4,971 nt of DNA from a virus (Duplodnaviria > Heunggongvirae > Uroviricota > Caudoviricetes), in IMG/VR virus record IMGVR_UViG_2698536476_000014. The stretch is one strand, 5' to 3'. How positions within the stretch are numbered: the first letter of the stretch is position 1; each line of letters opens with the position of its first letter. A program made the translations under genes and the position numbers. The notes beneath the pieces were generated by a model. That model was not told the DNA's origin, did no database searches, and worked only from the letters and a program-made list of their open reading frames with translations. Positions 485 to 523 of this stretch are shown piece after piece.

Positions 485-513
485 ATAATGAACCAATAGT
501 TCGACATTATCAA
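485..513 (-). promoter_or_regulatory. Candidate pL promoter: -35 TTGATA (508-513), 17-bp spacer, -10 CATTAT (485-490), read on the minus strand
   Basis: Hexamers and spacing read directly. The downstream leader (466-476, minus TCAGCAGGACG) resembles the lambda pL transcript leader as I recall it. Confidence 0.4.
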
Positions 514-523
514 GAACTATTGG
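493..523. promoter_or_regulatory. Perfect 10-bp inverted repeat CCAATAGTTC-N11-GAACTATTGG overlapping the candidate pL -35/spacer; possible OL operator or other protein-binding site
   Basis: Arms at 493-502 and 514-523 are exact reverse complements. They overlap the promoter hexamers. Confidence 0.35.

Follow-up and report, generated by a model that had tools for sequence, protein, structure and literature searches.

The perfect inverted repeat at the predicted pL of a 933W-type immunity region lies within the two known repressor operators OL1 and OL2

What a long, perfect inverted repeat does beside the putative leftward promoter of a lambdoid phage is the question raised by this locus. The window, meaning the whole stretch of 4,971 nucleotides that was analysed, belongs to a Caudoviricetes record in IMG/VR (IMGVR_UViG_2698536476_000014). 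An initial annotation made from its letters alone described a perfect 10-bp inverted repeat over the -35 element of a candidate pL, which was not found in the right operator region (OR) and might bind a different regulator or form a hairpin. It also pointed to a motif, (A/G)GTACGA, recurring in the left (OL) and right operator regions. The repeat is real and exceeds this description by one base, with 11-nt arms that are 100% complementary and separated by 11 nt. It is the sole perfect inverted repeat of at least 10 bp with arms no more than 60 bp apart in the window.

492-502, no strand assigned: left arm, ACCAATAGTTC, equal to positions 4-14 of OL1
514-524, no strand assigned: right arm, GAACTATTGGT, equal to positions 2-12 of OL2

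Positions 56-4812 of the window are 100% identical to Shiga-toxin phage 933W (AF125520 9269-14025; the AF125520 position minus 9213 gives the window position), and many Stx1 and Stx2 prophages are also 100% identical over the same interval. The elements run in the order N' - pL/OL - stk - cI - OR - cro - cII - O', the gene order of a classical lambdoid immunity region. N is cut after codon 60 by an IS629-like end, and identity with 933W stops at window position 56. The terminator tM is situated upstream of OL.

53-235, minus strand: 5' part of N, the antiterminator and first gene of the pL operon, with a weak N_peptide match
400-414, minus strand: boxB, GCGCTGACAAAGCGC, within nutL, unchanged in a seven-sequence alignment
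401-467, minus strand: nutL, from the AF125520 annotation (9614-9680)
702-725, minus strand: tM, terminator of the cI-stk (pRM) transcript, placed at 702-723 by AF125520 and to 725 by a terminator scan, with a fold of -14.5 kcal/mol
Between tM and OR, minus strand: L0081, stk, L0083, L0084 and cI, from the gene order
2862-3569, minus strand: cI repressor, 235 aa, with HTH_3 and Peptidase_S24 domains (Pfam), 100% identical to 933W cI
3562-3632, no strand assigned: the OR3, OR2, OR1 block, followed by cro, cII and O

Both arms of the repeat lie wholly inside annotated 15-bp repressor operators, one arm per operator. These are annotated in EF517298, the immunity region of phi24B, which is 100% identical to the DNA here and whose position 1 corresponds to window position 489. 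AF125520 annotates oR1-3 as 15-bp sites but neither oL nor pL, which is probably why the region seemed open in the initial annotation. The five sites, none with an assigned strand, are as follows.

489-503: OL1, TGAACCAATAGTTCG, the "OL1 repressor binding site" of EF517298 (1-15); perfect pattern match; holds the left arm
513-527: OL2, AGAACTATTGGTACG, the "OL2 repressor binding site" of EF517298 (25-39); perfect pattern match; contains the right arm and the GGTACGA copy
3562-3576: OR3, TGAACCATGAGTACG, annotated in AF125520 and matching the pattern; contains AGTACGA at 3571
3594-3608: OR2, AAAACTTTCAGTTCA, annotated in AF125520; one mismatch to the pattern, with A rather than G at position 2
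3618-3632: OR1, CGTACTGAAAGTACG, annotated in AF125520 and matching the pattern; contains AGTACGA at 3627

The site of the 933W repressor is 15 bp long and rotationally symmetric, with five natural examples, OR1-3, OL1 and OL2 (Bullwinkle et al. 2012, PMC3317979). Position 1 is poorly conserved with a consensus of C, position 2 is G with the sole exception of one OR2 half-site, and position 3 has a consensus of A while the repressor prefers T. A and C never vary at positions 4 and 5, position 6 is T in 7/10 and C in 3/10 half-sites, and the centre is A/T (PMC3317979). The ten half-sites of the five 15-mers in the window reproduce every published per-position count, with G at position 2 in nine of ten (the exception lying in OR2), the invariant A and C in 10/10 each, seven T and three C at position 6, and an A/T centre. 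OL2 carries T at 3' and C at 6', as stated for it in PMC3317979. The same paper places non-consensus 3' and 6' bases in OL1 as well, which fits OL2 exactly and OL1 partly, as OL1 here has a non-consensus C at one position 6 and A at both positions 3. Dissociation constants for all five natural sites, including OL1 and OL2, are given there by way of its references 11 and 12.

A pattern built from these published rules, GWACYNWNRGTWC, was used to scan the whole window with at most one mismatch allowed. It matches in five places only, at 490-502, 514-526, 3563-3575, 3595-3607 (OR2, one mismatch), and 3619-3631, compared to 0.55 expected, and none of 200 shuffles reaches five. OL1 and OL2 match with 0 mismatches. 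No third left operator was found near OL even at up to three mismatches, where counts are at chance level, in keeping with published work, which gives 933W no OL3. A search of full-text literature gave no match for the operator sequences or for EF517298.

The repeat region is almost certainly the OL/pL region of 933W, where one cI dimer on each of OL1 and OL2 would bracket the -35 element of pL. As judged from sequence, the assignment of OL1 and OL2 is based on identity with 933W, the match to annotation, the operator rules, co-inheritance with the repressor, and conservation. Repressor binding and affinities, the missing OL3, and non-cooperative binding are taken from the literature, with the footprints known by way of a secondary paper and GenBank annotation. 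OL1, OL2, and pL are already known and form an ordinary part of the 933W lysis-lysogeny switch. The proposal that the repeat is something other than a repressor operator is not supported, as the inner 11 bp of OL1 and OL2, as published, make up its two arms. Hence, an apparently novel palindromic regulator site is two known operators read as one repeat.

The recurring motif has the same origin. In OL2, OR3, and OR1, (A/G)GTACG makes up the outer half-site, whose consensus is C-G-A/T-A-C-T/C, and the (A/G)GTACGA of the initial annotation is this half-site with one flanking A. The view that GTACG is a repressor half-site common to OL and OR was therefore sound. RGTACGA occurs three times in the window (522, 3571, and 3627) against 0.38 expected, a count reached by one of 200 shuffles. 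The shorter TACGAW is not enriched, with six copies against 3.84 expected and 36 of 200 shuffles reaching six; two of these copies sit on the opposite strand inside stk. TACGA had also been read as a half-site at four positions, of which those in OL2, OR3, and OR1 stand and the remaining one does not.

550-554, plus strand: fourth TACGA copy, outside any operator, with no operator-like 13-mer at three mismatches

This copy is not conserved, being replaced by CTGCGAAG in Stx2_EH0337 and by AATGAGA in Lambda_ev058, and is a chance occurrence.

The sole sigma-70-like site between 236 and 900 is TTGATA-17-CATTAT on the minus (N) strand, with 9/12 matches to consensus. With the operators annotated at the same place, this bears out the initial placement of a pL/OL control region here.

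508-513, minus strand: predicted pL -35, TTGATA, from a consensus scan, in the 9-bp gap between OL1 and OL2
485-490, minus strand: predicted pL -10, CATTAT, from a consensus scan, with a 17-bp spacer from the -35
465-477, minus strand: first part of the pL leader, (G)TCAGCAGGACGC, unchanged between phages that differ in immunity

Of the predicted promoter, OL1 spans 13 bp of the spacer together with 2 bp of the -10. OL2 meets the -35, which it overlaps by 1 bp, and continues upstream. The claim that the repeat lies over the -35 is thus correct in that the predicted pL -35 is located there, but the element falls in the gap between the arms and not under them. On the N strand the predicted promoter precedes nutL and N, and its hexamers are kept in nearly all of the 76 loci with 933W immunity described below.

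The -10 lies 7 nt upstream of an invariant leader block, GCGTCCTGCTGA, which is identical in 7/7 aligned sequences including HK106, a phage with lambda immunity. The RNA from lambda pL begins AUCAGCAGGACGC, which matches the (G)TCAGCAGGACGC leader. Since the leader is invariant with a lambda-immunity phage and agrees with this 5' end, the +1 of pL is placed near 477; this start and the exact hexamers are predictions. Homology breaks immediately to the right of the leader, leaving the promoter and operators upstream as immunity-specific DNA, and a break exactly at the promoter is how an immunity region classically ends on its left. A second candidate for pL, in which GATAAT (511-506) would serve as the -10, was rejected by eye. 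It lacks an acceptable -35 16-18 bp away, and transcription from it would begin ~20 nt upstream of the leader block that lambda-immunity phages share.

In the lysogen, going by the literature, one dimer of cI would sit on each of OL1 and OL2. The geometry suggests that RNA polymerase would be occluded, with OL1 covering the spacer and the edge of the -10, and OL2 lying at the -35 and upstream. Bound in this way, the two operators would block leftward transcription through nutL into N. In lambdoid phages, RecA-stimulated autocleavage removes the repressor, which frees pL and allows nutL and N to be transcribed. Cro is expected to act on the same operators as cI. The 933W OL/pL is part of the switch that silences an Stx2 prophage, and once derepressed it gives rise to N-dependent antitermination, to lytic growth, and to the release of toxin. 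The biology of this switch has reportedly been characterised since 2004 (Tyler, Mills and Friedman; Koudelka, Hufnagel and Koudelka; later Bullwinkle and Koudelka in 2011). Binding of the 933W repressor to adjacent OR sites is not cooperative (PMC3317979 and other literature), and a loop between OL and OR has no role in the control of 933W pRM.

Compared to known systems, the locus is closest to 933W itself, in which OL1, OL2, and pL are identical in sequence, with the same 15-bp sites, the same per-position statistics, and two left sites with no OL3. What sets it apart from 933W is that IS629-like ends interrupt N and O. As one of these ends lies in N, pL would here drive only a truncated N. 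The layout is shared with lambda, in which the proximal operator covers the spacer and -10 and the next lies both at the -35 and upstream of it. There, too, transcription from pL passes through nutL into N, and the operators come directly after the cI operon's terminator. The first ~12 nt of the leader are also homologous to the lambda type, as seen in the HK106 row of the alignment. Conversely, the 933W operators are 15 bp and unrelated in sequence to the 17-bp operators of lambda, there are two left operators rather than three (OL1-OL3), and the repressor is reported to be non-cooperative at adjacent sites. A further difference from lambda is that the left operators are mirror near-copies which together make a perfect 11-bp inverted repeat. 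The phage 434 repressor-operator complex served as the structural template for the model of 933W repressor on DNA (PMC3317979). As in 434, with its 14-bp ACAA...TTGT operator, a helix-turn-helix contacts the outer bases and the centre is read indirectly; however, the half-site is CGAACT rather than ACAAG/T and the site length differs.

Comparison with related phages ties the operators to the repressor that reads them. Stx2_EH0337, Lambda_ev058, and PhiR12_4, whose cI proteins are at least 98.7% identical, keep OL1, OL2, and OR1-3 even where the flanks fall to ~73% identity. All five sites are present in L006-L008 and in IMG/VR loci with cI at least 98% identical. In Stx1_JNE102772 (L004) and ST2-8624 (L005) the cI match is confined to the C-terminal domain (residues 82-235, 94.8%). 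All five 933W-type operators are missing from these two phages and from HK106, all of which still share the nutL boxB, the GCGTCCTGCTGA leader, and the tM terminator. Across the phages compared, the operators co-vary with the DNA-binding domain of the repressor. The cI proteins of L004 and L005 have a different N-terminal DNA-binding domain while their OL regions are still 73-80% identical as DNA. On sequence grounds the two phages are a clear case of domain-level immunity mosaicism.

A wider survey covered 80 IMG/VR loci encoding the 933W repressor, using blastn and local alignment. The OL block was found in 73 and gave no match in the other 7/80. Together with L006-L008 this provides 76 loci, in all of which (76/76) OL1 and OL2 keep a 9-bp gap and a centre-to-centre distance of 24 bp. 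No change is seen at positions 2-5 and 2'-5' except in one haplotype (OL2 of L036, G2 to T), and the remaining variation is confined to positions 6-10, the spacer, or the flanks. The repeat is paired at 11/11 positions in ~55 loci and at 8-10/11 in ~20. All four combinations of C6/T6 in OL1 with G10/A10 in OL2 occur, which means that the two positions do not covary. This pattern indicates selection on protein-contacted half-sites and not on base pairing.

The 76 loci also provide a small catalogue of natural OL1 and OL2 variants, a few of which depart from the consensus at positions that are contacted or matter for affinity. These might affect how stable the prophage is. Three of the variants come from IMG/VR prophages with a repressor at least 98% identical, and all three break the published affinity rules. 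The OL2 variant of L036, ATAACCATAAGTACG, begins ATAACC through the G2 to T change, that of L075, AGAACTGCAAGTACG, has C at the centre, and that of L046, AGAACTATTTGTACG, has a disfavoured base at 6'. An OL2 ending in TTTGTACG and OL1 variants with C6 changed to T occur among the loci. Judged against the published rules, such OL variants might weaken repression of pL.

The perfection of the repeat requires a separate explanation. OL2 is a mirror-image near-copy of OL1, sharing 12/15 bases in inverted orientation, and it is this mirroring which produces the perfect 11-bp repeat. OR was said to lack the repeat, which holds only for the literal 10-mer. OR2 and OR3 use the same GAAC/GTTC half-sites as the arms, and OR2 and OR1 form an analogous perfect 9-bp inverted repeat (ACTTTCAGT at 3597-3605 and ACTGAAAGT at 3621-3629). 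The centres of OR2 and OR1 are 24 bp apart, as are those of OL1 and OL2, and both pairs are mirror near-copies including their non-contacted centres. Operator symmetry alone forces 5/11 complementary pairs. When operator pairs were simulated by drawing from the observed half-site columns, complementary runs of at least 11 arose in 1.3% of pairs and runs of at least 9 in 2.4%, or jointly in ~3 in 10,000. Since symmetry accounts for five of the 11 pairs and a run of this length is rare, something further, probably historical, must explain why the repeat is perfect. Most likely the mirror pairs go back to an inverted duplication, given that relatives do not conserve the central bases. A functional role, in which mirror symmetry orients asymmetric, indirectly read centres or DNA bends around the promoter element, seems unlikely. 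If true, such symmetry might belong to a switch in which dimers make no cooperative contacts with each other.

It is highly improbable that the palindrome at 492-524 instead serves some other regulator as one undivided site, be it a factor under antirepressor control, a host protein, or a tetramer. The repeat is indeed longer than operator symmetry predicts (~1.3% in the simulation), and the mirror arrangement also occurs at OR2/OR1. However, every base of both arms falls within the two annotated repressor operators, OL1 and OL2, and the OL block is present only with a 933W-type repressor DNA-binding domain, with which it is inherited. Among relatives, variation falls on the central positions to which the repeat owes its perfection and spares the positions contacted by the repressor, and the gene content (N, stk, L0081, L0083, L0084, cI, cro, cII, and O) implies no second regulator. 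The site calls for no regulator beyond cI.

The least probable reading of all is that the repeat works as a hairpin, whether an RNA stem-loop or terminator or a DNA cruciform, affecting pL or read-through from cI-stk. The 51-nt RNA does fold stably: the minus strand reaches -13.9 kcal/mol with a z of -4.2 and the plus strand -14.7 kcal/mol with a z of -4.7, and none of 200 shuffles folds as stably. Flanked by the strong terminator tM on its upstream side and the inferred pL +1 (~477) on its downstream side, the repeat should be contained in little RNA and so be essentially untranscribed. As a terminator or structured RNA the repeat fails, as the stem is stable but a terminator scan found no T-run terminator at the repeat and there is no compensatory change, while Rfam gave no match in the window. 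In the ~20/76 loci with 8-10/11 pairs, changes are not consistently compensated while the operator pattern stays, and decay of this kind with contacted positions fixed argues against a hairpin. Finally, an AT-rich stem with an 11-nt loop would be poorly suited to cruciform extrusion.

Some further features of the stretch concern tM and the two ends. The tM hairpin (CCCGGC...GCCGGG, 704-725) scored as terminator-like on both strands, and tM may be a bidirectional terminator that insulates the cI-stk operon from OL/pL. Positions 1-55 and 4813-4971 are IS629-like ends in inverted orientation, with 1-55 being by eye the reverse complement of 4813-4867 with one mismatch. The break in N comes after codon 60 and that in O inside the iteron region. 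In complete E. coli genomes the left IS/N junction was not found, as all matches listed begin at window position 56, while in phage JLK-2012 an annotated IS629 transposase lies under the match spanning O. An assembly contig with collapsed IS copies at its borders is one possible reading of the window, and a defective, IS-bracketed immunity fragment is another. The ori iterons of O occupy 4691-4814, six being annotated in AF125520, and include an inverted repeat of 20 nt with 85% complementarity (4749-4793). The sixth iteron (4797-4814) is clipped by the IS end at 4812/4813.
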